Of a stretch of DNA of 64,000 nucleotides, positions 2,631 to 64,000 are shown in pieces. Origin of the DNA: Lytechinus pictus (lineage: Eukaryota). The notes under the pieces are model-generated. The model was not told where the DNA came from and did not search any database. It saw only the letters and a list, made by a program, of their open reading frames with translations. The stretch spans positions 24,368,001 to 24,432,000 of the forward strand of contig NC_087245.1 of NCBI RefSeq assembly GCF_037042905.1. Reading direction: 5' to 3'. The first letter of the stretch is position 1. Each line of letters starts with the position of its first letter. Position numbers and translations under genes: made by a program.

Positions 2631-5600
2631 GGAAATAGTAAGTATCTCATCAAACAGACAATGCAAGCGTAAAGTGCGAGTTGCCTTATGATGATAAACT
2701 GACAATTTTGGAGGGGACCGCCTATTATGAAGGTGCTTGAATATGACATTCCCTCCACTTACACCAGGATATATTTAATTCATATATTCATCGTTTAGGA
2801 TCAAATTTTTAATTAAACATAATTCAAAAGTCATTGGAATAAGATTATCATTCACAAATCATGAATTTTAACAATACTCTCGTTATATAGGCAGTTGATA
2901 CAATATACAACAGTATGGCCTTATGTAGATTTGTAGGGCCAAAATTAGAATAATGGTTGCCTATCTATGTATATTACGATGAAAATATTTGTTTATTGCA
3001 TGTTATGTTGAAAAGTGACTATCCTTGTATAAATTTGTTATTTAAATGTGGAAATGAAGTAAAATATAATAATAATAATGTCCTAATTGTTGCGGCGAAA
3101 AATCACAGCGATCGAAAGAACGAGGAATCATGATTCTGGGAAGCGAGGGTGCTGGGGTATTATTGGTTGGTTGGTTGGTTCATTTATTTCTTCTTTCACA
3201 ACATTTGTACATAACATTAGTTAACAACATCATAAAAAATACTTTCTTAAGTACATCGATTGTCGCGCACACTTAAAATTTACAAAGATGAGATCATATT
3301 AAAAAAAAGTATATACATGTATGTCATGAAAGAGGAGAAGACCTTCAAGAGGAGACCTTTTCCATTGGCAGCATCGCCTACCCTGGACATCTATTTTTTA
3401 TGTGTGCCAAATTGGAAAATAAATTCTAAAAGACCTACATTTTATAATGAAACCTTTTTTTCCTGCTTGTCAAAATCATGGGGACCAAAAATGACCTTCG
3501 GTTTGAAACGCAAGTCTTTTTTTTGCCCGTCAAATTCATAAGGACCAAAATGACGTTAATTTTGAAATGTATGGGCCACTCTATGAATTATTTTGCTTCC
3601 AAATAATTATACAGAAATAGATTGAAACACTAAAATGATTATGACGGCTGGTGGCGCTACAGAAATTGTGACTTGTTATTTACGTTTTTGGTGAGTGATG
3701 GCCTCTGATCCACATCGGCGATGAGAATGAGATACACCTCATCTTAATCTTACTTTTTGTTGTATTTGGGAAGTCGTCAGGATTTCTTCAGGAGGATGAT
3801 TAATATTTGAAAATTTCCTCGATTGTCAACCAAGTGGACCACAAAATTATTTGTAAGTTACAGAAAATCCCGGTATTTGTGATGGATTTCAGATTGTTTG
3901 TTTCAGCGCATCGAGGCGAGCAGTGCGATAGCTTGTTTGTACGCCAGCGCACACGGCCACGCAAGCATGTAAATTGTGTGAAGATGAATGGGCTGGAGCA
4001 GCTGATATTCGTGTACGATGAGAATGAAGAATAGTGTGGCTGCTGTGTACATGTGAGGCATGGTCGTGGGTTTGTGCCGTGGCCGTGCATCTTTGAGTTG
4101 TAACTCGTTAGTTTGTGTGTGGTCCCTTGTCGACTTATATTGCGAATGTAACTTGTATTGTAACTGTATAAAGCTCTGTCTCATAAAATGCCTTTATTAA
4201 ATTAATACTACATGGTGTACATCATTTAGTTTTACTCCTTAACTTAACACAAACAGGCCCACATTAAAAGTCAATTTACTTTTTTTAAAGATAGATTAGA
4301 AAAAATAAATCATGTTCATATTTTGATCTACTTTTCATGTTCATAATATCATGAATATTAGGTTTGAAAATTTGCCCTACCAATTGCATGTTGCTGCAAA
4401 TTATCATCATGACCATTATCATCATCCTCATCATCATCATTTTCTCAACTTTGACTTTATCCCCCTCCTCCTCCTCATATTTTATTATTCTCCATCTTCT
4501 GCCTACCCTCCTTCTTTTCTTCAGCCCAGGGAATAATTTTGCTTTAGAAATTTGAATATCATGGTTATATGTATACCCAGTTGTTGTGTGTCCGGACGAT
4601 CAATTTTTGAAAGTCATTTGGAAAAAATTATAAGCGAAGTTTCATCAATTTTTAGTACAAAAATAATGTTAGAAAATAATTATAAAGAACAAAATAGAAG
4701 ATGATTATAAGTATTGAATTCATATTTTTAGTGTAATCCAAAGACAAAAAAGAAGGCTTCAAAAAGATAACTGTCCGGACACCCGAACCCCCCCCCATCC
4801 TACAGTGTAAGATACATGTATGTAAATGCTCTCAACTAAAAAGTAATGTGTAGTCCTATGTAAAAATATGCTAAGAAATTTATGCATAGCAGTCTTTCAG
4901 AAATGTGGAGCAAATCGTGATTCGATACCAGGAAAATTATTCCCTGTTCTTGTTCTTCTCCTTCTTTCGATCATCTTCTTTCATAATCTTCTCTCTCTCA
5001 CTCTTCCTGTTTGTTCTCCTCTTCCTCTTAATCCCTACTGTTTCCTTCTGATCTTCCTCCTTCTCTTTATCAGTTGAGTTCAGTCCTCTTTAATACTAAT
5101 AGTCGCAATGCACAGTAAAAGAATAGGAGAATTAGATAATTTTTTAATCCACCAATGCCTACTTTATTGCATCAGTTTATCTTTTTTGTTGTCTTAAAAT
5201 AATAATCAGGAACATCCATAAATTTGCAATGCAGTCACAGTGGAAAAGAGGAAATATAAAAATTGCCATTTTCACCATCAAAAAATTTGAAACTTCTAGA
5301 TATTCTGTTTGAACCTCCAATTTATTTCTGAAACTTTAAAAATGAAGTGGATCAATGAAACTGAGACTCTGCCTAATTCAACTCTTCATAAGTTGAATAA
5401 ATGCGTTACATTCTCAAAGTGCTCATTATTTCAGACTAGAATATGACAAACATGTGTTGATAATTTACATCTTCTTAATACCGGTAGTCGAATTATCCCT
5501 AATCCAATAAATTTTGTTGGTTGTACTGAGATTTTTTTAAAATGCATACAGTAGTCACCTGTATACTGGCTAATATGAAGAAGAAGAAAGAATGGTCAAA

Positions 5601-7441
5601 GTAAGTGTTAAATGTCCGAAAGGATCGTGTTTATGTACATTTCTGTCAAGCACTAATTATTGAGAAAGAAAGAGAGAGAGCGACCAGGGGGAAGGGGGAT
5701 GGGAGTAAAATAATGCCAATATTATTTTACAACAAAATTTAGGCATGTGCATTACTGGAAAATGTGCTACTACTTTATACCTGGATGCATACATGTCTAC
5801 ACATCCTTTTTTAAGTGAACACAGTGAATATGATGATGTAGTCCTGAAAAAAGTCTAACCCAGTGATGGTGGTTTGTGTGGTATACCTACGTTCAATCCA
5901 TGACCTAATGTATTGGAACTAGGTGATCCATGAGACAAAGTTTTTGGAAACTTCACATTTTCAATGAATTCCAGTAATTTTTTGTTAGTTTTCCCCATTA
6001 TAAACTAAAAGGATTGTGCTACACCTGTACACATCTAGAATTCCGTCAACTGTATTTTGATTGAAAAGGGGAAATGCAAAATATTTAAAAGTGTCACTGT
6101 CCCCTCAGAATGTATACATATAATGCAGTTTGCAATGGGAATATTATGTGCCCTTTTTTAAAAGCCTGTATGAAATCGATCGGTGAAGGTTTTACTTTTG
6201 TGAGATTACTGGAATACCTTCCATTTTATTCTCGCAAAATAGTAATATTTAATCACTGAAATTTTCTACCTGTATCCATTGATTCTTTTTGATGTGATGA
6301 TATTTTAGAGGATATCCTTTTGGCAATGTAAATTATTTATTTTGAAAAGGACCTTTGATTATAGAATACAAGTAACTATAATACCAGAAATGTACTTGAA
6401 TTTGAATGCTTGAGGAAAGGTTGCTTGCAAAAAAATGAAAATAAAAAAATAATAATTGGGGGGGGGTACCAAATAGGTCCATAATGATGTATGAGAGACT
6501 TTGGTTATTTGGTAGCTCTAGACAGAAAATAAGAGGAAGTGTGATTAACATTTGGCAGTGATTTAAAAATACAAGTTTTGGAAATTGGAATGGTTTGATA
6601 TATTTTTTTTAAATAAAAAAAATAGTTGAATGCAAATAAATTTCACCGTTGTTTGTATTTCAAGGAATAAATCTATAAACATCAATTACTTTGAACACAA
6701 CTGATTTGTTTAGTTTTATATTCAGTGCTTTCGGTTTCTTAGTAAAAAAAAAAAGTAGAACCCGTGACCCAGCTACTTTTTGCACTACTGAAGTTGATGC
6801 ATGTGCTACATAAAGTATTGGAATTAGGATAAAAAGGGCTGAAATCATACCATATTTTGTTACTTGGCGACATCTACAGAACTGAAGGCAGACGAGGTGT
6901 TATTATTGATAATGGTTAATACCTCTATCTTGAAGTACAAATTCTGGTGTAAACTGGATTGATCAAATTCCAAGTGCATGAATGCTATGCTTAAGGTACA
7001 GATGTTTATCAGGGCTGTGTTCACACAGTCACCAAGATTTTAATTCAAGGTTCACTCAAAGTTTGTCATGTATTCTATTGTTTGAGTCATTGGCCCATAT
7101 TCTGAAACTCTGGTTTAAATTAATTAAACTCTGGTTTAAACTGGTTTGACATGGAGAGCCAATTGGGGTACGAATATCTATTAAACAGTACACATTCAAT
7201 AAAAAGACACCCAAATTGTTCATAATTGTCTGGGAATGACAAATTAAGTATTTTGAAGTATTTTTCTTCATCATCATGAAAGCAAAATATTAAACATATA
7301 AGATAGAAACATAATTTTTTATTGTTTGACTCCCTATAACTTTAGCACAGAGTTAGACCATGGTCTAAGTTAAACCTGACTTCAGAATATGGCCCATTGT
7401 GTAAATACATGTAAATATGTATGTGGGTTTTACAATGTCCA

Positions 7442-8189
7442 TAAAGGCTTGGTCCTACTGCACTTAAATATGCTTTTCACACTGCACTTTCTCTTAACCC
7501 CAGGAAATTGGTGGGGCTAAGGGGGGGTCTTAGCCCCACCAATTTCCCGGGGTTAAGCTTAGCCCACTTTGTTTTCACACTACGCTTTAGCAAAGTGGGC
7601 TAGCACGGTAAATAGTACGGTACCATCTGGCCCTGCAAAAAAGCAGGGTTAGCCGGCCTATTGTGGTAAGAGATGCAGTGTGAAACGAAACAGGGCTAAG
7701 CAAAAGTGGGGCTAAGCATTAGCCAATCACAGAAGTCGAAATTGCATGTTAATCGCGCTCTGTATGGTAAAATCATCAATATTTATGAGCTGTGTGATTG
7801 CCCGGGGTTAAGGCGTTAACCCCGGCTAAGCAAATAGTACGGTGTTAAGAAAGACAGTGTGAATCGAAAAAAAGATAGTATGGGGTTAGGGATAGTCCGG
7901 GGTTAAGGATAGTATGGGGTTAAGGAAATGCAGTGTGAAAAGCATATTAGGGATTCAGAGAGGATGTAAAACGGAAAAGAATCAGAAAAACGTTATGTAT
8001 CCGTTGTGTACTCTGCATTATAGTATTTTATACGCTCTATATCCATCGAGCATCCATCCACTGTGATATCATTGTTCGCCCAATTTGTCCATTGTCTGGA
8101 GCGGATGGAGCCACCTTGTAATTTTACTCGTCCGCTGTATCTGTTTTGGATATGCTTTGTGTCTGAAGACCAGTGGGACCAGGCCTTTA
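7442..8189. mobile_element. PIF/Harbinger-like MITE (outer element) interrupted by a nested MITE
   Basis: TIRs TAAAGGCTTGGTCCTACTG / CAGTGGGACCAGGCCTTTA (17/19 match). Confidence 0.65.
7468..7947. mobile_element. PIF/Harbinger-like MITE nested in 7442-8189
   Basis: Perfect TIR ATATGCTTTTCACACTGCA / TGCAGTGTGAAAAGCATAT, flanked by TAA/TAG, with internal GGGGTTAAG and CAGTGTGAA repeats. Confidence 0.8.
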
Positions 8190-10596: not shown

Positions 10597-11543
10597 GGCT
10601 TAAGGTCTCTTCTGAAGGGGACTGGTTATCCTTTTAAATACTAAAGGGGTCATGGCTCACGCGCACACTGACATGGGTTTTGAACCTGCACTAGATCTAC
10701 TGGATTGCGAGACCTCTGCTCTGCCAAGTGCCAACTGAGTTTAATCGTGTTTGTGACTGGTAGGCCCTGGTACCTTTATAAAGCATTACTGGCAGAATTG
10801 AAATCTATGCAATCATTTGTGAAATGCTGAAAAAAAGTTATATTGGTGAGACCAATATGATAAGTTTTGATACTCAGTGATTGACAAAATAGTGTACACT
10901 GTACAAGCCACCACAAAAAAAAACTGTCATAAAATTCATCATTTGTGTAGACTTTACATGTATTCTTCTATGTACAAAGTATGCACATGTGTATTTGCCT
11001 GTGTGTTCAGTTTTCTTATCAACTGTGTAGTTATTGTTTGCAGGCTATTGTAGAACATTGTAGCTTTCTGCTCTACCCCCAAGAAAAGCAAACAAACACA
11101 AACATAATACAAACAAACAACACCAGAACCCAGAGTGGACTTTCTCTCATTGCTAGGCATACTTGTTATAAAGTACTCCACATTGCTTGCCAGTATGGGT
11201 AGAAAACAGGAGAAAAAAATGAACAATTGTACTTTTTCAATGTTTTTCACAATTTTCTTGTCTACATGTACATGTATGTATGTTAGTGTTGACCTTTGAC
11301 ACCGTTGATTTGAATGCTCTAGTTCACTAGGTAGGGTTGGTTAAAAGAATTCATTTTGTTGTTTTAATGTACAAATTAAAGTGGCCAAAAGAGTACATTT
11401 TCCTTTTTGAAAATATACCTTTCACTACATGTACTACAGTATTCAGTAGGCTCATAAAATGATAAATTTCTAATTGGTCTATTGTTCACTCTTTACCCTC
11501 TTTTGTGCACTTTATTTGGTCTCCTCCTGCATGGTTTACAACC

Positions 11544-14199: not shown

Positions 14200-14433
14200 A
14201 ATAAATCAAACAACTTGATTTTCCACTGATAAATGTAACACACATATTAGAGCTGATATGCATACATGTACCGGTACTTGATTTTTTTTTAGTTGTGATT
14301 AAGGACCCTGATCCATCAAATGGAAATAAAGACCAACACATGTATGATGGCGAAGTTCAAGAGAAATTATGATGAAATGAAGAGGATGAATGAAAATTGC
14401 ATTCATGATCAGAGAGATTGTATAACTTTAAAC

Positions 14434-17149: not shown

Positions 17150-17709
17150 GACTGTATAAGTGGTAGAGGCCAGTGTGCATGTGATGCAAGATTCATGAGC
17201 AAGCAGCTCTTTCTACATTTTCTACTCCCCCCCCCCCTGTATTTGCCAAACATCCCATTTTTATTGTTCAGGGCATCCACCAGGAAAATCGTTTCCAGTT
17301 GTGCAGATACAGTTAGTATATTTTACATGTACATGTATAATTTTTATTGCCAAGAAGCTATTATTTTACCTAAATATAGATTTTTTTTGTCTGCAGACAC
17401 TACACTGAGAATGCTGCTGCTACTGCCAACAGATGTTGATTTGTAACAAAAAATGGAGAAGGATTCTGTTCCCATGATCCCATCCATCCCATTTCCATCA
17501 ATTTGTAGAGTCTTGCCATTTGTGTGATAAAAAAATAAAATCAATACTTTGAATTTGAGTTTTCTGAAAATATGATAAGGATTTTTAATAATGATGTCAC
17601 ATTACCCTACCCATCAAAATCTTTGGATAGTACTTGGGAATATAAAGACAGAGCCAGTACGTGTACATAGGGTATTCATTGATATAGTCTTAAAACATTT
17701 TAAAAAGAA

Positions 17710-21842: not shown

Positions 21843-22208
21843 TTAAAGATAAATACCAGTTTTGATAACAATCTCAAAATGAGTTCGAACAGAATCCAAT
21901 AAAATTACCACCCAAGTGTTTGTATGTACATGTATGAATAAAACATACGTGCCAAGTGGCTCTGGAAGAAAATTTGTAATTTGTAAATCAAATGTCGGGT
22001 ATTTTTCCGAGCAATGTTAATACACTGTCCCACATATGCTTTCCTGCGTTCAGAATTCAGAATTATCGGTTTTCAGCTGAAATTTCATGATTTCACAAAG
22101 ATAAGTTGATTTCAATGTACCAGATCTAGATCTATGATAATGTATTGTATTTGTGACAACTGTCTCATAAAATAATTGTTTGCTGCTACTACTATCTTTT
22201 ACCTTTAG
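21843..22208 (+). mobile_element. Kolobok-like MITE, family K2
   Basis: Begins TTAAAGATAAATACCAGT. Homologous reverse-orientation copies at ~13845-14199 and ~56060-56277. Confidence 0.65.
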
Positions 22209-22704: not shown

Positions 22705-23283
22705 TTTTTGTCTCACCTGCATAGCAGAGTGAGACTATAGGCGCCGCTTTTCCGAAGGCGGCGACGGCGGCGTCAACACCAAATCTTAATCGAAGGTTAA
22801 GTTTTTGAAATGACAGCATAACTTAGAAAGTATATGGACCTAGTTCATGAAACTTGGCCATAAGGTTAATCAAGTATTACTGAACATCCTGCCTGAGTTT
22901 CATGTCACATGACCAAGGTTAAAGGTCATTTACACGTAGGGTCAATGAACTTTGGCCAAATGGGGGTATCTGTTGAATTACCATCATAACTTTGAAAGTT
23001 TATGGATCTGACTCATGAAACTTGGAAATAAGAGTAATCAAGTATCACTGAGCATCCTGTGCGAGTTTTAGGTCACATGTTCAAGGTCAAAGGTCATGTA
23101 AGGTTAATGAACTTTTGCCATGTTGGGGGTATTTGTTGAATTACCATCATATCTCTGTAAGTGTATTGGTCTACTTCATAAAACGTGGACATCTTGTGCG
23201 AGTTATAGTAGTTTTCAAAGTCAGCACTGCTGCTATATTGAATCGCGTGATGCAGGTGAGACCGCCAGAGGCATTCCACTTGT
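22705..23283 (+). mobile_element. Helentron-associated (HINE/DINE-1-like) element, copy 1
   Basis: Starts in a T-run. Subterminal IR GTCTCACCTGCAT / ATGCAGGTGAGAC, a 5' partial IR (GTGAGAC), a short (GGC)n tract, central ~165-bp tandem units, and a 3' tail ending CCACTTGT. Confidence 0.75.
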
Positions 23284-23469: not shown

Positions 23470-24070
23470 AGAGATCCTACTACACTGTAGTTTGAAATTT
23501 ACTGGGAGTCCATTATAAAAAAAACTGGCTCCAATATAGGAAAAACGATTGTCTTTTAAATTCTGTCTTTGCATGGGGAAGTTGGACGGGGCAATTTAAA
23601 GAATAACGGGTTCTATAATTTGGGGTTCGTTTTGCATATCAATGATACTACCGGTAGATAAGTCGGTAATAGATTGTTTAGTATTTTAAAAACAAGAACA
23701 CAATAATGCACTGCTCAACTGATTGCCATTTCAGTGTGTAGGAGTGTAGAGCTATATGATAATCTTTATTCAGAATCATTCTGACATATTTATTTTGGAG
23801 TTTTTGTATCTTACTGAAATGAGTGTTTGCACAGCTTCCCCAAGATACATGTATACCACAATAATCAACATAAGGCAAAAATCATAGAAAAGTACAGATT
23901 CTTCATAATTTTAAAAGACAGTATTAATGATTTATCCTCCGTATACAACCAATTGCCCGAGATATTTTATAAACAATAGTAGAAACATGTTCACACCAAG
24001 TCAAACCACAAAGTCGAGCATACAATGTACAAAGTAACACCTAAAGTATTTTACCTTTACATTTTCCAAA
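23470..24070 (-). pseudogene. Decayed LINE (CR1/L2-like) ORF2 C-terminal fragment
   Basis: Minus-strand peptides GLTWCEHVSTIVYKISRAIGCIRRI, PYVDYCG(IHV)SWG...IQKLQNKYVRMIL and FSYIGASFFYNGLP follow the order of post-RT motifs in CR1/L2 ORF2. Broken by frameshifts and stops. Confidence 0.75.
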
Positions 24071-26917: not shown

Positions 26918-27936
26918 TTTGTCTCGCCTGCATAACAGAGCGAGACTATAGGCGCCGCTTTTCCGGCGGCTGCGGCGTCAACATGAAATCTTTTAAAACC
27001 AAGGTTAAGTTAATATGGAAATGCCATCATAACTTTGATAAATAGTATATGGTGCTAGTTCATGAAACTTGGACATAAGGGTAATCAAGTATTATTGGAC
27101 ATCATGCCCGAGTTTCAGATCACATGACCAAGGTCAAAAGTCATTTCGTCAATGGACTTAAACCGTGTTGGGGTAATCAACATCGAAATCTTAACCAAGG
27201 TTAAGTTTTTGAAATGTCAACTTTGAAAGTTTATGGATCAAGTTTGTGAAACTTGGACATGAGGGTAACCATGCATCACTTAATAATCCTGCCTTAGTTT
27301 CAGGTCACATGACCAAGGTCAAACTCATTTATGGTTGACAAACTTTGGCCGGAATGGCCATAATAACTTTGAAAGTTTATGGATCTAAGTTATGAAACTT
27401 GGACATACATGTAAGGGCAATCAAGCACCACTATGACATCCTTTGCTAGTTTCAGGTCACATGACCTAGGTCAAAGGTCATACAGGGTCAACAAACTTTG
27501 GCTGTGTTGGAAATAGTTGTTGAATTGGTATTATAACCTTGAAAGTTTATGGATCTAGTTCATGAAACTTAGACATAAGAGTAATAAAGTATCATCCTGC
27601 GTGAGTTTCAGGTCACATGACCAAGGTCAAAGGTCATTTAAGGTCAGTGAACTTTGCCCATGCTTGGGGTATTGTTGAATTGCCATCATTAATTTTGAAA
27701 GTTGATGAATCTAGTTAAAGACATTTATGAGGGTAATCGAATATCACTTAATTTCCTCGAATCTACATGATAAAGGTCAAAGGTCATTAAGGATAAATGA
27801 ATATAGTCTTTTATTGTTATGTGAATGGTATTTTTTGTGAATAATTATCAAAGAGTCGTTTTCAAAGTCAACACTGCTGCTACATGTATATAGAATCGCA
27901 TAATGCAGGCGAGACTGCCAGAGGCGTTCCACTTGT
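26918..27936 (+). mobile_element. HINE/DINE-1-like element, copy 2, with more central tandem units
   Basis: GTCTCGCCTGCAT / ATGCAGGCGAGAC subterminal IRs. About 5 units containing ATAACTTTGAAAGTTTATGGATC...CATGACCAAGGTCAAAGGTCA. Same 3' end as copy 1. Confidence 0.75.
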
Positions 27937-30019: not shown

Positions 30020-30442
30020 TTTAGTTTCAGCAAATTGCCTATACGTCTACTGCCAACTCGTTCACTCACCACATGGTGTCTACCTTCATTTAGCCTAATG
30101 CCGTTCTGTCCATCAACATATCGTGTAAACAACCATTTGGTCCAATCATCACTTCGTCTAATCACCAGTTCCTCTATGACCATTTCGTCTCATAACAAGT
30201 TGTTCCAATATCCAACTTATTTTCTTTCTATTTTTTTGTAATAAACACTTACTAGTAGTCTAATTAGACCAAATGATATGGACTAAATGGCTAGTGGACC
30301 AACTTGTTATTTAATAGACAAAATGGTGAGTGGACGAAATGGCAATAAGATCATGTGGATATTGGACGAATTGATGGTAGACCAAATGATAGTAGACGAG
30401 ATGGCAATTGGACGAAAAGGCATTAGACCAAATGGAAATATA
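30020..30442. repeat. Foldback-like element made of ~20-bp degenerate units in inverted arms
   Basis: The left arm repeats CATTT(C/G)GTC(T/C)A and the right arm repeats T(A/G)GAC(C/G)AAATG. A related decayed copy lies at ~11710-11985. Confidence 0.6.
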
Positions 30443-42406: not shown

Positions 42407-43650
42407 ATAAAATTGAAATTAAACTGAACGTGAACAATTTTGGATTCAATTAAAGAAAGTACATGTAAGGTGCAAAATTTGAAGAAGAGTACATGTAGTT
42501 GTAATAGCTAAACTTTGCTGTAATATTTCATCACCAATGTTCTCCCTCTATCTGACTCAAATACATGTATATTGTTGTTGGTGATATACTTTTGTTGTTG
42601 AGTTGAAAATGTCCATCATTTGGTTCATACTGTAGGTTCACAAAGGGAAAAATAAAGCAAATAACGTGTTTTCACTTTATTGCTCTTCTGCTACCCTGAA
42701 TTTCTTACTTGAATATCAGATTCTACAATTTTACATAAGAATTTAAATGTCATAGATGTCGAAAATAAACATGCATTTATAATCAGTAGGGAATATTTGT
42801 ATTAATGGCAAGTGCTCATTAGGCCAAGTCTGTTCTTGTTAAGTTATACGGAATAAGATGGATCACTTTTCACAAACAAATTAATCAGAATTTGGAGTGA
42901 CATTGGGGTTTTTTTTGGCTCATCAATTTTATGCCCCAGTTTTGTAACCCTAGATCCTTTATTTGAATTTCAAATTCCACCCTCATACTGTACTTGGGAA
43001 TTTGAATTTCATGTTTGATACGAATAGTCAGGAAAAATATGTAAATGGCAGTTGTTAATAGCTCTGGAAAACTATGGGTGTTCTGGCGTTGAAATATTGT
43101 TACTGGATAAGCTGTTGAAATTAAAGTCCTTTTGCTTTACTCCACATTCAAATATATTTGCCAGCTGCATTCATTGTTTTTCAAACATGTATTCCTTGAT
43201 CATAGTTATTAGTGCTGTAGAATTATTTGGGTTTTTATTGCAATTTCTTTTAATAGTTCACTACAAAAATTTGTCATTTTTATACTACTGACTGTTAAAA
43301 TATTCACCATGTACAGTAGTTTTATTTTATTAATACATGTAGGGACCCAATTATAAGCATATTTGATATAGTTATGAGGCTTTCCTGTAGACTTAATACA
43401 GGAAATAAACTTGTGACATGAAATATTATTTATTACTCTGTATACATGTATATCTTTTCAAAGTCATTGATTGGTACAGTGCGCATGCAGGATTTATTTT
43501 TCTTTAAAAAAATTGCATTCACTCCCCCCCCCCTTTAATTACATGTAGTTCAAAATCTTCCTTTATACTTTGTCCTAATGTAAATCATGAAAGTTGAAGA
43601 AACCTTGCATTTCAATATTTCTTTTTCATTCTTTATTTCACCCTCTATAG

Positions 43651-43954
43651 ACGATGCGGAAAAAGTTCTTTGTCTTGCGTTCCGAGAGCAACACCGGCCC
43701 ATCGCGACTCGAGTATTACGACAACGAGAAGAAGTTTAGACTAGGCGGAGAACCCAAGCGGACAGTGCCTCTCTCTGCTTGCTTCAACATCAACAAAAAA
43801 TCAGACGCTAAACACAAGCATGCCATTGCCCTGTACACAAGAGATGACTGTTTTTCGTTGGTTGCTGATGATGAGGAATCGCAACAGGAGTGGTTGAGGG
43901 CGCTGCTGGAGCAGCAGAGGGCCGGAGGAGATGGCAAACTCATTCCTGCGTTCG
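43651..43954 (+). CDS. IRS: IRS coding exon 2 (PH domain)
   Basis: Polypyrimidine tract and TAG acceptor at 43648-43650. Encodes TMRKKFFVLRSESNTGPSRLEYYDNEKKF...CFNINKKSDAKHKHAIALYTRDDCFSLVADDEESQQEWLRALLE. Donor TTCG|GTAATG, 304 nt, phase 1. Confidence 0.96.
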
Positions 43955-44394
43955 GTAATGTCTTGAATTTTTGATCCCCGTCAGGTAACAAGAATTAAAC
44001 TTTTTTGCCAAATATCAGTATCACCGAAGTTGCATGGCAAATTTAATTCTCCCAATTTAGCTTGTGCATTACTATGAGCTGCAGCCATTACTAATGTAGA
44101 ATAAGTTTTGGAAACACACATTATTATCAAAACAAGGAAACCTTTTACTTGTCACCCATCATGTGCATTGTATGGCACTTCTTATCAAACTTATTGGAAA
44201 GTCATGCACAAGGCAGGTTAAGCTGTTGACTACTGAATTCTGTAATTCCCTTTATATGCTTTGTACAGAGAACATCCGGTCCAGTAGACAACGGGTTTAT
44301 ATAACGAAGAGTAATGTGAAACACCCAAGGCACCATTTCTCCATTTTATTTTATTCCACTCTTTTTATTTTTTGTGTACATACCACTTTGACAG

Positions 44395-44986: not shown

Positions 44987-46662
44987 GCTCTGGACCTTTT
45001 TATAGAATTTCTCTGTTTTGATATCCTCCTTTTGTAATGAAGCAAAATAGTGTAGGCTCATTTTCCCAATCAAATTTTTTCTGAGAATCACTTCAGAGAT
45101 AAGAAGGAAAAGAAAGAGAGAGGGGGGGGGAAGGGGGAAGAAAGAAAGAAGAATGTGGGGGAGAGAGAGAGTGAGTGAGTGTCCTATTAGTATGCAAGAA
45201 GACATTGACAGAGTAAAGTCAAATGACATGCACTTAGCGTGTGAAGTAAAATATTGTCTTAATGGAACATGGTTTCGGGCTAGTGCAAATGTACTCCATC
45301 ATAAGCCGGCGATAGGAACACGTTTACACTCTCAGGATGTCTGGAGTATTAGTGTTTGCTAGTGTGAACGCACTATTGAAGGTTGAGGAGAAGGTTCAAA
45401 GCAAAGATGCAATTGCCTTCCTTCAATAGATGTCCTGGATTGTCCGCATAATGAATAACAGTACTGCATTTGTGAAAGTAACGAGTTGATTGCTTTGGTT
45501 TTTGTAATTAGTGGAATTTCCTACATTCTTATGGCAGGTACATGTACATGTATTGCACCAAGCTGGAGCATAGAGTATCTGCTATGTTAACTGAACTGAA
45601 GTTTCTAGTATGAACATTCCTAAGTATCATGTGTACAGAGATTTGTACGTGTACCAAGTATAATTACCCTCACATTTGAATAGTGTGAACACAACAAGAC
45701 TCAGTAGTAATTAAGATTTATACATGAAATTGTAATCTCTACAGATGAGTCAGTTTCTTCTGTCAGCAAACAGAGAGAAAATAGAAATTGAAAATTGCCT
45801 AAATGAGATTGGAAGATAAAGATAGCAGTCATCAATTACTAGAATGAGGGGAAAAGCAAGAATGTCAAAGGCAGTGCATGTCTGAATAGATCATGGTAGT
45901 GAAAAACAAACAATCTAAACCTGTAGAAGTGTAGAAAGAAGGAAGATGAATTGAAACAAGGCTCAGAACCTTTTTTTCCCCCTGATCAAATTTCTAATAG
46001 GAATCCTAGGATTACTACAGAGATGACATTGAATGAGAATGAAAAATATTTCCTCTTGTAATATCATTGTTCATCTAGAATGTGGTTGTTATTGAAATAA
46101 TAATAGTGGCAAGATACATGTAGTCTTGATTATCCATTAAGGGTGTTTTGCAAATAATTTTCTATTTTTTTTAAACCAGCTCTTCTTCGCATCAATAGGA
46201 TGATCCTCGGTTGTCCATATTTCCCTAGGATTATCATTTTATTTCATTTATTTATTTATATTTATTTATTCATATATTTATTTACTTATTAATTAATTCA
46301 TTCATTATTTATTTATTTATATCTTTATTTCTTTTTTGGGGGGTTTGAAACTACCTAGTAAACAAGAACTTTTCCTTTCTTTCATGGGAATACAAATGTT
46401 TACAGTCAAGTGTCTGATACATAAAGAGATATTCTGAATGTTACTGAGAGTTATGAAGATTAGATACTAGATGAATACAGATATTTACATCTTTATATTC
46501 TATATATGATTTGATTGCTTATTTGAGTTTTTTTCCTGTTTTATGTGTTCTCGTACTCCTTTTCTGAAGGGATTTGATATCTACATGATATTTTTTTCAG
46601 ATTATTAGTATTATCGCTATCTTCATGAGATTTTTGCCTGCCGCTCTCTCTCCCTCTTACAG

Positions 46663-46805
46663 TTGTCAGCGATACGTCGCTGCGGTCACTCTGACTGTTT
46701 CTTCTTCATGGAGGTTGGCCGGCAATCTGTGACTGGTCCTGGAGAACTATGGATGCAGGTTGAGGATACAGTGATAGCTCAGAGCATTCATGAAGCCTCC
46801 TTGGA
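46663..46805 (+). CDS. IRS: IRS coding exon 4 (PTB domain, C-terminal half)
   Basis: Acceptor CTCTTACAG|. Encodes [47 protein letters not shown](E), with the IRS PTB hallmark IRRCGH...EVGR..VTGPGE.WMQV. Donor GA|GTAAGT, 143 nt, phase 2. Not in the ORF track. Confidence 0.96.
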
Positions 46806-46902
46806 GTAAGTATTTCACCAACCCTCTTGTACTATGAACCTGTTGCTTTCTAAAAACCACATGGTAAGTGAGTTGTCAGTGCCATACATTCATGTAGATA
46901 TA

Positions 46903-47561: not shown

Positions 47562-49889
47562 TAATTGATGATGTGCACTTTTGTATAATTTTCAAACCAT
47601 TTTCCAAGAATTTAGAGGCAACTCCTTTAATCTGACTTAATACAGTATGTAAGTGACACTGATATAAAAGATACTGTCACAAATCCTGTTTCCATTTTAT
47701 ATCATCCTTCTCTCCTAATCCTAACATTGCTTCTCAAATCCCAGATGTAACTTGACGTCTTCCCTTGCCCCTTGCTGACAGAATTTTCAGTAGCAATGGT
47801 TGATATACCCTACTCTCATTAAGGGGCCAGAGAAACACTCGACACAGGGAATCCATCATTTATTTCCCTTGATGGTGTGTTGGTATTTAGAGAGGAAATT
47901 AGAGAATCTAAAATATATTCTGAGTAGCTGATTTTGGTCATAGAAATAATGAAGTCTAGTATCCAATATGCACTTGATGCTTCTTGGAGAATACTTGAAG
48001 ATCCTCTTTTCTCCCAGACAGTGTTCTTGCGAAACTCAGATAATGTTTAATAGCATTCATTCTTTTCCAACTTATCTTTTCAATTTCATTCCTTGTTGCT
48101 TTCTTTACCTATTCCTTGCAGTTTTTTTTTTTTGGGGGGGGAGGGGGGTGTGAATGTCGTGTTTATGTTGTGATTTCAAGTGACTTTCCAAAATCCCCTA
48201 TGACTTGGCGTATCAACGTTGAGTGGGTTCCCTCTATAAAAAGCCCTTGCTGAATATCACTCAGACTGTACCTGAAGGAACCTAGAAAATTCCATTTAAA
48301 GAAAGAGAACATATGGATTCTATACTTTTTATTTTTATTTGTGGTTATTTTCATCAACATTTTTGTCAATTAACTCTTTGCAAACAAAGTATGTAATGTA
48401 CCTGTTGGAAATAGAATTTCATTTCATTTATTGGTTTCTGCAACACTTTTTCATAAACACATTTAATAACAGAGAAAATACAATAATATATGTATAACTG
48501 ACAAGCAAAACATTGAACAAAATTGCATTTTCTATTGATATATATTGCTTTTTACAAGGTTGCAGGGGTTGCCACTATAAGCTAAGCTTGACTGCATGGC
48601 AATCCATGACCATGGCCATGCTCATACCAAATAAAGCTTTCATATAACTTGCAGTTTGAAAAAAAATAGCTCCACCAAAAACGACGGGAGTAAAAAATAT
48701 TGAGTATTATCAAACCCACTATTTCAAAAGCTGTTCAATAGCATCAACAAGTTGTTTTTCTCTGGCAGTTACCATAGCAACAGTGACCAATGCTTCATAG
48801 CCAGTCCATAACAAGCTATCACTGCTAATGGCCAAAGCTGATTAATAATTCATTCAGTGCAGAAAACTTTCATGTAATGGCGCCTGGCTCATTTGCAAAA
48901 TCTCACTTTTTATCAGCAGAGGGTTAAATTTTGATTTAAATATTCTTGACATTAAAAGAATATTAAGGTTTTTTTTTAATCTCATTCGTACATGTATTTT
49001 AGTTTAGGCCCAAGTGATCAAAAGTGACTCTAGGAATCCTGTTTTGTTTTAGAAATTTGATAGTCATATATTTTATGTAACTTTTTGTGATGCATAGTCA
49101 TGGGATGATGTGTTGCGCATGCTTGTTAATTTTTTTTGTAGTTTTACATCAATTATACAAAATTAGTAAGTTTTACTCTCCCCCCCCCCTCTCTCTCTCT
49201 CTCTCATGATAGTGGTCCAAATATTTCATTTTCTGATTTCAAAATTGTATTGAAAAAGCTGACTATTTTACGATATTTGGTTAAAACTGCCTTCTTAATT
49301 TTGCACCCAAAAATATTGGAAAGAAGGAGAAGAATATTTAGTTTCTTTTTTTAGAAAGACAAATTATTTGTTTAATTCCATTTGTAACAAAAAGATATCA
49401 AAATAGTTTTAACTCTATGAATTTCAATTTATATACCTTTTTTGTGTTCTATTTCAAAATCAGAATAACAAATTATCTTATCATATTCTGAATCCCTCTC
49501 CCCTCTCCCTCTTCCCTGCTTTGCCTTAAGCCCCCCCCCCCCCCCATGGTCAGTAATTTTGTATTTGCTTCATGGTATTCAAAACTAAATGGAAATCAGA
49601 CACAAACCAACCTTTGACAGAAGAGTGAAGATGGACAGATGACTTACACCTTGTGGGCAAAACACTTACATGCCAAGTATTATATACATCATTCATGGAT
49701 TATTGCTTTAAAAGATTATGTTGGAATAGATTTTTCCCCCATTTCTTGTTGCTTGTTATACCATGGGACCAGAAAATGAAATTGGTAGCTGGTGAATTTG
49801 AAATAAGACACCGCATGGAAATGCCATGATTCAGGTGTTATTGTTCTTTTAATACGAAAAATTCCTTTTTTTTCTCAATCTTCAATATA

Positions 49890-50186: not shown

Positions 50187-50194
50187 CCGTATAA

Positions 50195-51090
50195 TACAGG
50201 TGTCACGCGCGTAAAACATTCCCCATAGACTTGTGTGTTAAAATGGCACTTTTGAAAAATTCATAAAAAATAAATGTGAAATTAGAGGGTGGAATGTTTA
50301 CTACCAATGGATAGGATATATATCTGACATTCCAAATCTGACCAGGAAAGGGTACCGTAGCCAGCTCATTTTAAACATAAATCGCCATTTATGAAGATAA
50401 CTATGAATCGATCGAATTCATCAACTGAAACAGTAAAATAGCCCTAATTATTCCGCCAGTCAAAAAATAGTTCCAAATTACTTATTTATCTTCCCAATTT
50501 GGGCGAAGTAAGTTCAGTAGTTACCATTTCTAGAATCAGTGTTAGATTTTGAATCACATTCATACATTTTTGTCAATCAGCAATATCAAATTGACAAAAA
50601 TTCGAATGGGTTGGGTCGAACGAATATCTTTAGCCCTCCTGATGTAATTAGGCTCGTGGAACCTATATTATGTGACTTATGTATTTTATTTTTTTGAATA
50701 GCTACTTTTCTATTCTTTTATATCTGTACACTCACACTAGCACAAAGAAATACATTGAAAATGCCTATTTTCTATGCAATGACCCATTTTAATGTGTTAC
50801 CCATACATGTTATTTTCACTATTTATGGATGTATACAAATCCTACCTGCATATAGCCCAACAGTGAATGCAATGACAATATAGGTCCCTATCAATTGTAA
50901 TATAAAAGTGTATGTAAATTCTGTGTAGATATCAGGATACCAGAACTGTCCCAAACATAATTACCAAATATACATGAGATTGGATGAGGAAACAATAAAA
51001 GAATGAGATACTACTTTAGTATATTTGCATTTGACCTATTCAAAATCTTCCTAGGGCTGTTGCCTCTCAGATGTAAGAAGGAAGAGATAC

Positions 51091-51125
<35 letters not shown>

Positions 51126-53628
51126 AAAATAATTTTATAGATGGCATGGCTTAATAAAGAGGGGGGGGGGGGGCTATACTAAGATTGCAGCACACAGCCA
51201 CCCCCCCTCCCTCCTTAGTTGAGCACTATTAGATACCTTACCTTACTCTGTGCCCCTTTCTAAATACCTTCTTGAAGGCACCACTCTAGTTCTCTTTAGT
51301 AAAGTTCTCAAAGTTCTATCTCCTCTCTACCTACCCCCTTCCTAAGAACAATTTTAACATGATGAATTTCTAAAGGTCTTTCTAATGCTAAGTAGGTGAT
51401 GTACACTAACACAAAACAATGATAAATCAGAACATAAAGAGGCCTTGACTCTATACCAATGTATAGACAAATGACTCTGTACCAATGACCAATATACATA
51501 TACATTCCTAGGCTACACAGACCTACTAACTTTACCTGATGTAGCCCTGCTAGCCATTAAATCCATTTTTTTTGCACCACTTCTGATGACTAAACATATT
51601 GATATCAGTGAGAAATTGTTTGCTACTGAAGAGTTTGGCCAGGTATTCCATCCGGCTACTAGGGATTTCCCATATTACTTACAGGTGTCACGCGCGTAAA
51701 ACATTCCCCATAGACTTGTGTGTTAAAATGGCACTTTTGAAAAATTCATAAAAAATAAATGTGAAATTAGAGGGTGGAATGTTTACTACCAATGGATAGG
51801 ATATATATCTGACATTCCAAATCTGACCAGGAAAGGGTACCGTAGCCAGCTCATTTTAAAAATAAATCGCCATTTATGAAGATAACTATGAATCGATCGA
51901 ATTCATCAACTGAAACAGTAAAATAGCCCTAATTATTCCGCCAGTCAAAAAATAGTTCCAAATTACTTATTTATCTTCCCAATTTGGGCGAAGTAAGTTC
52001 AGTAGTTACCATTTCTAGAATCAGTGTTAGATTTTGAATCACATTCATACATTTTTGTCAATCAGCAATATCAAATTGACAAAAATTCGAATGGGTTGGG
52101 TCGAACGAATATCTTTAGCCCTCCTGATGTAATTAGGCTCGTGGAACCTATATTATGTGACTTATGTATTTTATTTTTTTGAATAGCTACTTTTCTATTC
52201 TTTTATATCTGTACACTCACACTAGCACAAAGAAATACATTGAAAATGCCTATTTTCTATGCAATGACCCATTTTAATGTGTTACCCATACATGTTATTT
52301 TCACTATTTATGGATGTATACAAATCCTACCTGCATATAGCCCAACAGTGAATGCAATGACAATATAGGTCCCTATCAATTGTAATATAAAAGTGTATGT
52401 AAATTCTGTGTAGATATCAGGATACCAGAACTGTCCCAAACATAATTACCAAATATACATGAGATTGGATGAGGAAACAATAAAAGAATGAGATACTACT
52501 TTAGTATATTTGCATTTGACCTATTCAAAATCTTCCTAGGGCTGTTGCCTCTCAGATGTAAGAAGGAAGAGATACATAGAGAGAGAGAGAGAGAGAGAAA
52601 GAAAAATAATTTTATAGATGGCATGGCTTAATAAAGAGGGGGGGGGGGGCTATACTAAGATTGCAGCACACAGCCACCCCCCCTCCCTCCTTAGTTGAGC
52701 ACTATTAGATACCTTACCTTACTCTGTGCCCCTTTCTAAATACCTTCTTGAAGGCACCACTCTAGTTCTCTTTAGTAAAGTTCTCAAAGTTCTATCTCCT
52801 CTCTACCTACCCCCTTCCTAAGAACAATTTTAACATGATGAATTTCTAAAGGTCTTTCTAATGCTAAGTAGGTGATGTACACTAACACAAAACAATGATA
52901 AATCAGAACATAAAGAGGCCTTGACTCTATACCAATGTATAGACAAATGACTCTGTACCAATGACCAATATACATATACATTCCTAGGCTACACAGACCT
53001 ACTAACTTTACCTGATGTAGCCCTGCTAGCCATTAAATCCATTTTTTTTGCACCACTTCTGATGACTAAACATATTGATATCAGTGAGAAATTGTTTGCT
53101 ACTGAAGAGTTTGGCCAGGTATTCCATCCGGCTACTAGGGATTTCCCATATTACTTACAGGTGTCACGCGCGTAAAACATTCCCCATAGACTTGTGTGTT
53201 AAAATGGCACTTTTGAAAAATTCATAAAAAATAAATGTGAAATTAGAGGGTGGAATGTTTACTACCAATGGATAGGATATATATCTGACATTCCAAATCT
53301 GACCAGGAAAGGGTACCGTAGCCAGCTCATTTTAAAAATAAATCGCCATTTATGAAGATAACTATGAATCGATCGAATTCATCAACTGAAACAGTAAAAT
53401 AGCCCTAATTATTCCGCCAGTCAAAAAATAGTTCCAAATTACTTATTTATCTTCCCAATTTGGGCGAAGTAAGTTCAGTAGTTACCATTTCTAGAATCAG
53501 TGTTAGATTTTGAATCACATTCATACATTTTTGTCAATCAGCAATATCAAATTGACAAAAATTCGAATGGGTTGGGTCGAACGAATATCTTTAGCCCTCC
53601 TGATGTAATTAGGCTCGTGGAACCTATA
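50195..53628 (+). repeat. Near-identical A-B-A-B-A tandem array (A = 473-bp TA-flanked MITE-like unit, B = ~1.0-kb spacer)
   Basis: A at 50195-50667, 51680-52152 and 53156-53628. B at 50668-51679 and 52153-53155. Periods 1485 and 1476 bp. Confidence 0.95.
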
Positions 53629-56059: not shown

Positions 56060-56277
56060 CAACATCTTTTGAAAAAAATATTCCTTGCTTGAAGTACCAG
56101 ACATTTGATGGAACTTCTGGCTTATTATGTTCATTTCACAGCAATTGCAAATTTTCTTCCAGAGCTATTTGGCACATATTTTTTTTTCATTTATACATAC
56201 AAACACTTTGGTGGTCATTACATTGGATTCTGTCTGAACTCATTTTGAGATTATTACTACAACTGGTAAAATTTAAA
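56060..56277 (-). mobile_element. Family K2 copy (reverse, partial), ~90 bp upstream of IRS exon 5
   Basis: Shares TTTTCTTCCAGAGCTATTTGGCACATA...CATTGGATTCTG...CTCATTTTGAGA with 14086-14170. Confidence 0.65.
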
Positions 56278-59839: not shown

Positions 59840-60431
59840 TTATAGGAGAATGAAACTCTTGGAGCAAGTTAGCTTTTGTGAAAGCAGAAAAATCAAAGAA
59901 TAAGATCAACAAAAGTTTGAGTATAATAGGACTAGCAATAGAAGAGTTATGAGCATTTGAATGTCGATATCACTAATGCTATGGAGATCCTCCCATTGGC
60001 AATGCGACCAAGATCTATGATGTCACAGATGAACAACTCTCCCCTTTTGGACACTGAAAATATACCCCAAAACATCTCTTTTTGCTCATTCTAATCATAT
60101 GACAAACGATTCATCAGTGATATAATGTTGTGAAACCTCTGTAATTGTCCTCTCATAAAGAGAACACCTCACCTTGTGATAGACTCTATAAAAGTGAGAA
60201 TATAAGTGAAATAAGTACTAAAGTAGTGAGGGAGTTGTACGTGTGTGACATCACAGATCTTGGTCGCATTGCCAATGGGAGGATCTACATGGCATTAGTG
60301 ATCTCAATATTCAAATGCTCATAACTTTCTTATTATTCATTCAATCTTCCTCAAACTTTCAACAATATGTTTCTTTGATTTTTCTCTTTGATATGGATTC
60401 AGCTGGTTTCAAGGGTTTCATTCTCCTTTAA
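59840..60431. mobile_element. Kolobok-like MITE, family K3
   Basis: TTAT-AGGAGAATGAAAC...GTTTCATTCTCCT-TTAA. Long inverted arms include CTCCCATTGGCAATGCGACCAAGATCT and its reverse complement. Confidence 0.8.
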
Positions 60432-61001
60432 TAAGGAGACAAATAATGGAGGTTCACCTGAGAACGCCCTGCAGTCAGACTGCGTGTAAAGTGTTCCAGT
60501 TGATGGCTTGCTATGGTGCTTTATGTATCTTGAACATGCAAACTGTATTGCTGATTCCTGAGCACAACAGAAGTCTTGAGTTATGTCTGTTTGTTAGTAG
60601 GGATAACCCTCCACAGCATCTCCCTCAACAATCCCTTCAATTCAGCTCTGACAAAAACAAATGGGGAATCCAAGAAAATATAAAGACACTGAGCAGGATC
60701 TCTGAGTAAAAGCTCAAGTCCAACCTTAATGTGGCCTTTAGCAAAAAAATTACACTCGGGCAGCTTGTCAAAGAATTGTTATAGATGCGTTATCAAAAAG
60801 TTCATTGAACTATGTATGTTCATCTTCATGTTTCATGGAAAATGCAGATGTGCACCAAGAAGACATCGGGACACCTGGCAGGGTTTAAACTTTGTATGAA
60901 TCTATGCCTTTAATACTGGGCTATCACAAGACATGTTTCCAGCATACATGTACATGTATGTCGATATACAAGTCACACTTACATCTTTGTGAAATATTCG
61001 C

Positions 61002-61266
61002 CAGGGGCCCGTCTTACAAAGAGTTAGCATTGGTCCAATCAAATTGTAACTATGGAAATCGATCAGTGTCATAATTTTTTCTGCAGGAAATTTGCAAAAT
61101 GTCAATTGTAAACAAACGAGAACACACCAAATTGTTTAAGAAATCAATGAATTCATGGATATAGAATTTTTTTTGAACAAACATGCATTTTATATGTTGA
61201 CTTTGCTGGCTTTCCCTAGTTGCGATTGATTGGATCAATCGCAACTCTTTGTAAGATGGGGCCCAG
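61002..61266. mobile_element. CWG-target MITE
   Basis: CAG-GGGCCCGTCTTACAAAGAGTT...AACTCTTTGTAAGATGGGGCC-CAG. Confidence 0.75.
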
Positions 61267-61490
61267 GTGTGACAGCTTCAAGCTTGTGCACATATCCTCT
61301 AAAAAAATATTTCTATAGTTAAATGCAAAATATAAAGAGAATAACATTTCGTTTCAGGCAATTGGACTTGATTTCTTTTCTCCGAAATATTCTCTTTTGC
61401 CCTCAGAAAGGTAGTAACAGTAACTTTGGAAATGATGTTGCAGTACATGTATATGTGACCAGTCGCCTCAAAAGCAACAATCAGTTGCCA

Positions 61491-62230
61491 TTAACCCTTA
61501 TTAAACTGGGGGAGGGGGTCTTTTTGACTGCGCCGCTCTCAGACTTTTTACTTTCAAGTCTTGCGCACCAAATTTGCGACGCCCGGGTACGCGGTTTCCA
61601 AAATTACGCAACGTTTTGTAAGTGCATGTCAGACAAGAAATTGCTCAAAAACGTGATTCCGTGTAAAAAATCAATGCAAATTGTGTTTTTCAACCAAAAA
61701 TCATAAATGTATGATTATTTTTAGTTTTGTTGGTTTAAATGGATTTTATGCTATTTATAATCGCAAAAGGGTCCTCGACAAAGTTCATCGGGAAAAACAA
61801 TAAAAGACAATGGTTTGAAAAAACAAAGAAATACATAAGAATTTTAAAAACAATAAAATACATAAGAAATTAATTATATTTTTGCTATTTTTTTGTAGAT
61901 ATTTGTTAGAAATGTAATAATTGATACTCCCACCAAAAATTAGCATTCTACTAGCTATATAAATTGAGTTAAAGGCAAATACATACACAAAAAACCAAAT
62001 TTATGGCAAATTTCATATGCTTATTTGCATAATTAATTAATAAAAAATTTTTTTTTTTTTAATTTTGAAAATTTTACTATACACTCTTGTAGTTTAAATC
62101 CGGCTCTCCGCACTTGCAAATTTTCGCGGCGATTACGCAATCAGCGGCCGAGATCTGAGGGGGGGTCAAATTGACCCCCCCCCCCCCCAGTATATACTGG
62201 TCCGAAATAGCCCAGTTAAGATAGGGCTAA
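61491..62230. mobile_element. piggyBac-like MITE
   Basis: TTAA-CCCTTATTAAACTGGG...CCCAGTTAAGATAGGG-CTAA. CCC..GGG ends, a TTAA-type TSD, and subterminal GGGGGTCAAATTGACCCCC. Confidence 0.75.
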
Positions 62231-62716
62231 GGTTGTCTATAAATGATTTGGTCTTTAAGGAATAAAAATTAGAAAAATAGGCTTATCTGAAAGAATATAT
62301 GTACTTCTTCTTCTTTATACTGTCAAAATGTTAAGGTGTCAAGTTGGGATAAAAGACAAGATAAAAAGAGTTTCTGTGACACCCTATTTTGCAGACTGCC
62401 TGAAAGTTTCACTGAGATTGCATAGCATGCACATCCCATGATTGAGTAAACCCCAAACTTTAAACCTTGATCTCTCCTTAATTTTTGAAGCTCTATGTGA
62501 TATTCTTCTGCATTCAATCAAGCACTAGTATGGGTATTTAAATTGTTGATTAATTTTAACAAATCATATATAATTTCAAAGCTTGGGATGGCTTTTTTTT
62601 TTCAAGCACAATAAAAATATCAAATTTCAGTTTGGGCAGCTTACTGTGGGTTTTGAGGTGGCAGGTCACATATACCGTACTTCAGTCATGTGTTCTGGGG
62701 CCTATAACATAAATCT

Positions 62717-63123
62717 TTAAAGGAAACCAAAACCCAAGAAGAGAAACAATCTTATTGGAAAGAGTAAAATGAGAGGAACAATTTTAAGTTTTATTACAAT
62801 CGGTTATAAAATAAGCAAGTTATGGACGTTTAAAAAGTCTTGTTGTACTTTCTGTGGGTATCCTTAAATTGGCAAACTTGCTTCAATTTGTGGACAACTC
62901 TCCATTTGTTTTTTACACAAATTTTCAGATTTTCCTTATTATCTTTCAAATTGCATCTTGCCTCCTGAGCACAACAATTGTCATGAGAAAATATAATTCA
63001 CACCACATATGTCAAAGTCAGGAGGAGATAATGTGAAATTTTGATGAAACTTTTTAAATTGTTCCTCTCATTGTACTATTTCCAATAAGATTGCTTCTCT
63101 TCTTGGGTTTTGGTTTCCTTTAA
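62717..63123. mobile_element. Kolobok-like MITE, family K4, nested in a CWG-type MITE (62695-63223)
   Basis: TTAA-AGGAAACCAAAACCCAAGAAGAGAA...TTCTCTTCTTGGGTTTTGGTTTCCT-TTAA, a perfect 25-bp TIR. Confidence 0.85.
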
Positions 63124-64000
63124 TAGTAATGGATCATGGGTCTGATTTTTAGATAATCGATCAATGCAATCAATGAGATAAATTCGCCCTGTGATCCATT
63201 GCTAAGCTTTTATGTTGGTCCTGGTCGTCATTGTCAGCAGTGTTAGAATATGCTATGCTTCCGAACACAAGCAAAAAGGTGTATCTTGCAACTGAACTTG
63301 GAATTACCTATTTTTTTTTTCCATTATTCTGTTGAAGCTTGTTGATGTTAGATTCTAAGATGCCAATCTGCATATGTTACAAGGGCAAAGAGATGTTTAA
63401 AAAAAATAAAGCCCAAAATTTCTGCTTTGCCACATTCAACCACTTAGTTTTGGGAATTTTGATGCACCAAAGTATTCATAACACCACTTTTCACGTGCAA
63501 TGCTATATGAAAAGATAATCATATACATGTAGCTGTTTATCTCTAAGAGTGGAGTTGTGCTTGCAGATCAGTGTAATGTAAACTAAATCTTGTGGATATA
63601 CATGTATGCACTGTATTATTCTTTAAAATATCTCTGAATAGTTACTAGAGATCGGGCACTGTTTTTGTGTTGCTTCTCAGCACTGACAAGGTGTTGTTCT
63701 CTGACTAGAAACAGACAGATTCTCGGCAAATCAAAACCAAGGATTTCACTGAAAATTTCATGAGCAATCTGTACTGGCGCCAAGAAGGGATAGGAAAGAG
63801 GGAGGGGATCAAAGACAACATTTAATCCAAGATGTGTTATATCAACATTAGACATTATCCTTTGAATGTTTGGCTGATATTAATACCGTCAACCCATATC
63901 CATGGAATAAGGGTTTTTGCTATGATCTTATTTTTGATTATTTTTGTTTTCACATCAGCTTACTTGTTTCAAGGGTCTAATTTTCCATGAAAGCCACTTT

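Follow-up and report, generated by a model that had tools for sequence, protein, structure and literature searches.

A palindromic octamer abundant in the Lytechinus pictus genome is probably an excision scar of TA-targeting transposable elements

The palindromic word TACATGTA saturates a 64,000-nucleotide stretch of the Lytechinus pictus genome (assembly GCF_037042905.1, contig NC_087245.1, positions 24,368,001 to 24,432,000; hereafter the window, in which coordinates are counted from the first nucleotide and are unstranded unless a strand is given). Where sister copies of the surrounding DNA permit a check, TACATGTA is usually a gain of CATGTA at a pre-existing TA dinucleotide. The copies are probably excision scars left by cut-and-paste elements. 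The best candidate makers are likely the miniature elements with CACT(G/C)..AAAAA ends (the CACT clan) rather than the Tc1 family.

The word is found 69 times in the window by word count, between 3314 and 63606, with starts at 3314, 4813, 7406, 8298, 9483, 9529, 9995, 10249, 10274, 10955, 11263, 11269, 11426, 12057, 12455, 14263, 15503, 16873, 16979, 17324, 17330, 18896, 20437, 21927, 23846, 24652, 25667, 27406, 27881, 28322, 28560, 29446, 29903, 30716, 32087, 32331, 32611, 33703, 34654, 35221, 37537, 39393, 40302, 40900, 41287, 41441, 41628, 41638, 42460, 42490, 42562, 43334, 43443, 43540, 45539, 45545, 46115, 47018, 48989, 55643, 55697, 56907, 57348, 59020, 60945, 60951, 61444, 63524 and 63599 (the last copy occupying 63599-63606). 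Dinucleotide shuffling (100 replicates) yields 1.40 +/- 1.20 copies, with a maximum of 5, and Markov models of orders 1 to 3 predict 1.5-5.6; among the 8-mers of the window, TACATGTA ranks second, behind poly-T. The excess estimated by eye in the preliminary description of this locus, about 60 copies against about 2 expected, is borne out by both counts. Genome-wide, there are 224,046 copies in 811.7 Mb (G000), or 0.276 per kb. The reversed word (85,448 occurrences) makes a poor control for this search, as stacked and flanked TACATGTA copies themselves contain it. The expectation can also be derived from the two halves of the word: within a DNA sample of 1.46 Mb, TGTA follows TACA without a gap 508 times versus ~53 expected, and therefore ~90% of the copies, roughly 200,000 genome-wide, are in excess. 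The distribution is blocky: 60 genome stretches at even spacing contain between 0 and 24 copies per 10 kb, and 38 per 10 kb are reached beside one rich stretch. The window, at 1.08 per kb, is a hot block with four times the mean density and is surrounded by a TACATGTA-rich, low-CpG block of ~76 kb; the saturation claimed at the outset is local and extends neither to the genome as a whole nor to the 100 kb upstream of the window, which contain 16 copies (0.16 per kb). Density is genuinely, though weakly, associated with low CpG (rho -0.19, 500 two-kb bins).

The insertion origin of the word is apparent from an all-against-all alignment of the window and 170 genome stretches, in which an insertion was treated as polarised if two or more other copies were without it and these were at least double the number of copies sharing it. 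After merging of duplicates, 362 polarised events were obtained. A change from TA to TACATGTA accounts for 12 of the 41 polarised six-base insertions in repeats, and these 12 events fall at 9 distinct non-homologous sites; single six-base events were also found for TACACGTA, TACAGGTA, TACCGGTA, TACTAGTA and TAGGCCTA. At the 56 motif sites located within repeats and covered by at least two alignments, the state most frequent among sister copies is a six-base gap (25 sites), another gap (19), a substitution (6) or the word itself (6). Origin by CpG decay from TACGCGTA or TACACGTA was ruled out, both words being rare and the sites being gaps, not substitutions.

The four comparisons within the window from which the idea of an insertion had been drawn are all upheld. 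Within one interspersed repeat, an internal unit carries the insertion at 27406..27413, where the sister unit at 27071 has plain TA, and 85 aligned segments are without the six bases. In the same repeat, the insertion at 27881..27888, compared with the copy at ~23233, is missing in 50 aligned segments and present in none. A second repeat carries the insertion at 21927..21934, with an empty reverse copy near 56190 and a six-base gap as the commonest state (12 of 22 alignments). Finally, at 23846..23853 (minus strand), the insertion adds two codons to a relic resembling a long interspersed nuclear element (LINE); the relic sequence DYCGIHVSW aligns to a LINE-like frame from the same genome with a two-residue gap at this place, and the score of this alignment is equalled by 2 of 1000 shuffles.

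Contigs of a related organism (organism A), derived from public runs of several samples and diverged by ~7-8%, provide an orthologous empty site: at 42562..42569, exactly six letters are left out in samples X1, X2 and X5. At 42460..42467, TACATGTA is single in the window and in X2, doubled in X5 (at a loose end) and, judging by length, probably doubled in X1 and X4 as well.

The scar appears to consist of two fixed halves with a variable centre. In addition to the directly joined halves, TACA and TGTA are separated by one base in 140 cases and by two bases in 55, against the same expectation; the analogous spacing count for TAGG and CCTA gives 130 and 31 versus 8 expected. Polarised variants retain both half-ends around a middle of 1, 2 or 18 filler bases, and the inserted letters are independent of the flanking letters, which are not copied. 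Fixed halves with a variable middle would be the product expected from the joining of two element-derived overhangs. In the window, a stacked scar, TACATGTACATGTA, is present at 11263..11276, with further stacks at 17324, 45539 and 60945. Variant six-base insertions at TA are found at 22931..22938 (TACACGTA; 109 segments without and one with the insertion) and at 30250..30257 (TACTAGTA; weakly polarised, four without and two with). The sister word TACCGGTA at 14269..14276 has one TA in common with the scar at 14263, and others are located at 5479, 23649 and 40188; TAGGCCTA is present at 1722. Several palindromes are enriched in the genome sample, namely TAGGCCTA (17.8x), TACCGGTA (7.0x), TACATGTA (6.9x) and TAGATCTA (6.5x), the last mainly due to a few stretches (L063, L078); TACATATGTA is absent from the sample, yet occurs 3,004 times genome-wide. 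The most enriched of these words, TAGGCCTA (~0.09 per kb in the sample), is likewise a polarised insertion, is found preferentially in CpG-rich DNA and shows no co-variation with TACATGTA at 2 kb (rho -0.03), the relations of the two words to CpG being opposite. No GG..CC-ended maker for TAGGCCTA was found in about 2 Mb. In one 10-kb stretch with 38 motifs (L159, G000:C6:4990001-5000000), as many as four units are stacked in chains and mixed with GGCC, CAG and CAWTG variants. Among the polarised four-base events, ATTAA/TTAAT insertions are recurrent (~10 of 62; positions 48463, 30311 and 13985 of the window and other loci) and are possibly scars of TTAA-targeting elements.

TA-flanked families with CA..TG ends, from which such scars could originate, do exist in this genome, so that the refutation named in the preliminary description, the lack of any such family, does not apply. 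The young Tc1 family is 1.9 kb long, encodes an intact transposase frame (PF13358, PF01498) and includes copies that are >99% identical; TA is followed by CAC at 44 of 44 ends, there are 551 exact ends genome-wide, and the family comprises about 275 copies versus 200,000 scars. Many Tc1-family copies are palindromic dimers of 2.2-3.1 kb, in which two right halves stand head to head and the left end is replaced, each with its own breakpoint (L031, L034, L037, L042-L044, L047-L050, L054-L059; e.g., G000 C6:20051860-20055291). For a CAGTG-ended family, 5,000 exact ends were counted, and no transposase was found in the four long copies checked; pogo-type DDE_1 frames yield 76 matches in the genome. 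The CACTG-end pattern has 8,086 matches versus 237 for the control, and CACTC-ended relatives exist as well. In an unbiased sample of 0.99 Mb, the CACT clan contributes the commonest TA|CA end, with 24 ends versus 5 and 0 for the other two families, and the clan is estimated at about 10,000 elements in the genome. These CACT(G/C)..AAAAA elements are 80-860 bases long and mostly have TA on both sides and CAC..GTG ends (exceptions among the listed paired copies are L236, L248, L255 and L192). One CACTGC element contains subterminal repeats, which are a hallmark of CACTA elements. A 574-base satellite, with 17 copies in 10 kb (L099, G000:C10:15000001-15010000), holds a whole CACTGC element in each unit.

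The target preference of the maker is expected to persist in its scars, so that the flanks can be used to test the candidates. In scars, T is avoided at -1, and A is preferred at -3. Their composition at -1 (A.38, C.18, G.31, T.13) can be set beside that of the CACTG ends (A.40, C.16, G.33, T.12), and the latter (n=43) match the scars at -1, -2 and -3 (p 0.81, 0.98 and 0.86), while being distinct from ordinary TA sites at two of these positions, -1 and -3 (p 0.013 and 0.047). The CACTC ends (n=12) also fit the scar flanks, yet are indistinguishable from the background. A mixture fit assigns 38-80% of the scars to CACTG, 0-12% to Tc1, 0-10% to CAGTG and 15-56% to background (5th-95th percentiles of 60 bootstraps). 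Altogether, the CACT clan is likely a better candidate than the Tc1/mariner/pogo families, and the chance that it makes most of the scars appears to fall a little short of even.

The alternative that fares best retains the same footprint mechanism, and hence is included in the excision origin considered probable above, but assigns it to a Tc1/mariner or pogo family, be it present, extinct or unsampled. The young intact Tc1 family and the pogo-type frames are compatible with this assignment; furthermore, taCATGta is a reported, albeit rare, Tc1 footprint in Caenorhabditis elegans, according to the available text of PMC3520976, and Mariner-type elements leave end bases together with the duplication (PMC4561436, in the part accessible). 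The flanks speak against it: A precedes TA in 40 of 46 Tc1 ends (p 2.5e-8 against the scars at -1) and T occupies -2 in 41 of 46 CAGTG ends (p 3.9e-9 against the scars at -2), most of which have T-A before the target, and the scars resemble neither. The Tc1 family, given also its small number of copies, and the CAGTG family are each ruled out as the sole maker. In addition, the main somatic Tc1 scar in C. elegans is four bases long (78%, as given in the accessible portion of PMC12632400), whereas here none of the 62 polarised four-base events is a TACATA/TATGTA insertion, and this word is not enriched in the genome sample. The attribution to Tc1/mariner in the preliminary description is thus not supported for the families that were characterised. 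The flank test covered the Tc1 and CAGTG families, with target preferences of pogo-type elements barely sampled, and a maker from the Tc1/mariner/pogo assemblage is best regarded as possible but rather unlikely.

Several observations weigh against scars made by the CACT clan. The transposase of the clan was not found in the genome. Transposase_21 has 12 matches, among them long intact frames, and two EnSpm-like copies are alike over about 10 kb or more in a probe comparison. Relatives of these intact frames were found in 80 metagenome loci, only two of which have paired ends, both CCC; CCC-ended EnSpm-like elements would fit TACCGGTA, not TACATGTA. The CACT end pattern was not found in the metagenome scan, and a PDB search with the EnSpm-like alignment gave no useful match. 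Only 2 of 17 living CACTG ends are located in the rich blocks that hold 62% of the scars (p 2.6e-5), these blocks having been picked on the motif itself. The flank match rests on 43 ends, many of which come from the initial 10 Mb of a single contig, and a looser CAC pattern (68 ends, non-elements included) mismatches the scars (p 0.003 at -1). The flank profile of TAGGCCTA is nearly the same as that of TACATGTA although no GG..CC family was found; the signature is therefore not unique to the CACT clan and may be common to several families or to a transposon-free process. As for excision in general, 4 of the 12 TA-to-TACATGTA events are at one homologous TA, where three more copies carry the word, perhaps by descent, and no element-filled allele was seen at any site among the indel rows listed for organism A. 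Apart from these points, several of the EnSpm-like transposases in the genome (L312-L321) are intact single frames of 650-910 residues, some of them in 99% identical pairs on different contigs. Two complete metagenome elements of 11.5 and 12.9 kb (L377:124-11664 and L381:36-12908) have CCC ends and subterminal repeats, and L377 is flanked by TA.

If the scars are products of excision, a four-step scheme can be proposed. An element would insert at TA and duplicate it, in agreement with the TA on both sides of the element families. It would then be cut out at a distance of two bases from either end, so that CA would stay behind on one flank and TG on the opposite flank, a cut position that we infer by precedent from Mariner-type elements. 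End joining that fills both overhangs would yield TA-CA-TG-TA, which is the product seen, sometimes with at least one extra base in the middle. The scars would subsequently drift to fixation and accumulate with age, becoming densest in CpG-poor blocks like that of the host gene, where they are indeed observed. In the broadest form of this scheme, put forward tentatively and less likely than not, the ~200,000 copies of TACATGTA, with some 1.2 Mb inserted, would be a fossil record of excision, mainly of CACTA-like TA-specific miniature elements; each TA-targeting family would leave its own palindrome (CATG, GGCC, CCGG), excision would be far commoner, or its products far more often retained, in CpG-poor transcribed blocks, and abundant 'promoter motifs' such as the Phytophthora motif-1 would have the same origin. 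With the same reserve, this might be a scar type previously undescribed for the CACTA-like clade.

The density of scars had also been suggested to serve as an age clock. Within rich stretches, it increases with repeat age (0.22, 0.45, 0.54 and 0.95 per kb), unique DNA having 1.30 per kb; outside of them, it is flat (0.07-0.18 per kb), and therefore any such clock is local. The flux of insertion and excision, presumed to be enormous, is rather modest: at steady state, 200,000 scars correspond to a single scar gained for about every 500 substitutions, and the excision rate needed is about 1.6e-6 per element per generation, with an assumed mutation rate of 1e-8, which is an ordinary rate.

Next in standing is a process free of transposons, for example one whereby a break at TA is followed by addition of two bases and snap-back or hairpin copying, with stacks arising by slippage, so that CATG, GGCC, CCGG and GATC would all come from one machinery. 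The enrichment of several TA-XY-Y'X'-TA palindromes (TAGGCCTA, TACCGGTA, TACATGTA and TAGATCTA), the scar-like flanks of TAGGCCTA in the absence of a maker, and the clustering of scars away from living elements would all be accommodated, and so would the stacks, which involve 33 of 508 scars (6.5%) versus 1.3% of TA sites in rich blocks. Conversely, the independence of the inserted letters from the flanks, the retention of both half-ends in variants that differ only in the middle, and the lack of co-variation and opposite CpG relations of TAGGCCTA and TACATGTA are at odds with a single machinery of this kind, and no enzyme adding CA twice is known to us. Such a process appears unlikely.

Still less probable, indeed very unlikely, is that TACATGTA is a selected binding site, of an Irx homeodomain or a MYB-type factor, that transcribed regions have retained or acquired. 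The word is a preferred Irx site and an abundant promoter motif in Phytophthora (PMC3520976, in the text available), it appears in the abstract of a paper on a MYB-related protein (PMC11134190), and its density is highest in CpG-poor, gene-like blocks. Nevertheless, the usual origin of binding sites is substitution, and this state prevails at only the six sites mentioned above, whereas TACATGTA is one exact insertion that increases with repeat age within decaying repeats and a LINE relic. Selection could explain part of the clustering. An assembly or sequencing artefact, for which nothing was found, has a negligible probability given that independent runs of organism A carry the word at 42460, with X2 gap-free over 42440-42545, that organism A lacks the six letters at 42562, and that density tracks repeat age.

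The host gene of the window is IRS-like and lies on the plus strand. Its PH-domain exon is in the open frame 43651..43971 (+; PF00169, E 3e-10) and the exon of the IRS-type PTB domain in the frame 46609..46806 (+; PF02174, E 2e-11). As stated in the preliminary description, TACATGTA is never found in the exons, i.e., 0 copies in ~1,005 exon bases delimited by eye; this absence has no statistical power because only 1.1 copies are expected (P = 0.34). A stretch without TACATGTA at 49.0-55.6 kb includes a near-identical tandem duplication (50195-53628, period ~1.48 kb, 99.5%).

Excision is the half of the life of a DNA transposon that normally leaves no countable record. If the copies of TACATGTA are scars, excision becomes countable, mappable and datable from one genome, its rates can be compared between chromatin domains, and the maker can be identified from flank signatures. 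It would also follow that a highly over-represented genome word can have a mutational origin, which calls for caution when motifs are sought in marine invertebrates and oomycetes, and that repair in the germline of this organism is clean end-joining, in contrast to C. elegans, in which germline repair of Tc1 breaks produces varied deletions via polymerase theta (PMC4490562, as far as its text was available).

The closest known counterparts are the Tc1 footprints of C. elegans, which have the same TA target, CA..TG ends and a scar composed of the duplicated TA and end bases; here, unlike in C. elegans, one symmetric six-base scar dominates, is inherited and amounts to about 200,000 copies. The preliminary description was not aware of a footprint explanation for the motif; the idea has been published for Tc1 of C. 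elegans and, for the Phytophthora motif-1, was weighed and then rejected by the authors, at least in the accessible text of PMC3520976. In the literature outside subscription journals and Repbase, no paper was found on TACATGTA as a genome-wide scar in an animal, nor any report on scars left by CACT(G/C)-type or CMCT elements. The plant Mariner/Stowaway MITEs (miniature inverted-repeat transposable elements) likewise are non-autonomous, insert at TA and leave the duplication with short end sequences; the available part of PMC4561436 reports no genome-wide dominant word, and the candidate elements here differ in having CACT(G/C) ends and subterminal repeats. Hairpin-type excision, described for Ac/Ds in the same text, would copy flank bases, not end bases. 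The CACT elements resemble the CMCT/EnSpm description in the accessible portion of PMC12730594, with CAC..GTG ends, a short duplication and subterminal repeats: the CMCT clade (EnSpm/CACTA, Mirage, Chapaev, Transib, ESTA) mostly has CA..TG ends and duplications of 2-5 bases, and ESTA has TA duplications, with all listed supplement rows beginning with CAC. No transposase is linked so far to the CACT elements here, and ESTA is described in rust fungi. Finally, the Phytophthora promoter motif-1 is the same word TACATGTA and is very abundant (12,070 upstream regions), although in the text available its authors read it as a transcription-factor site (PMC3520976).

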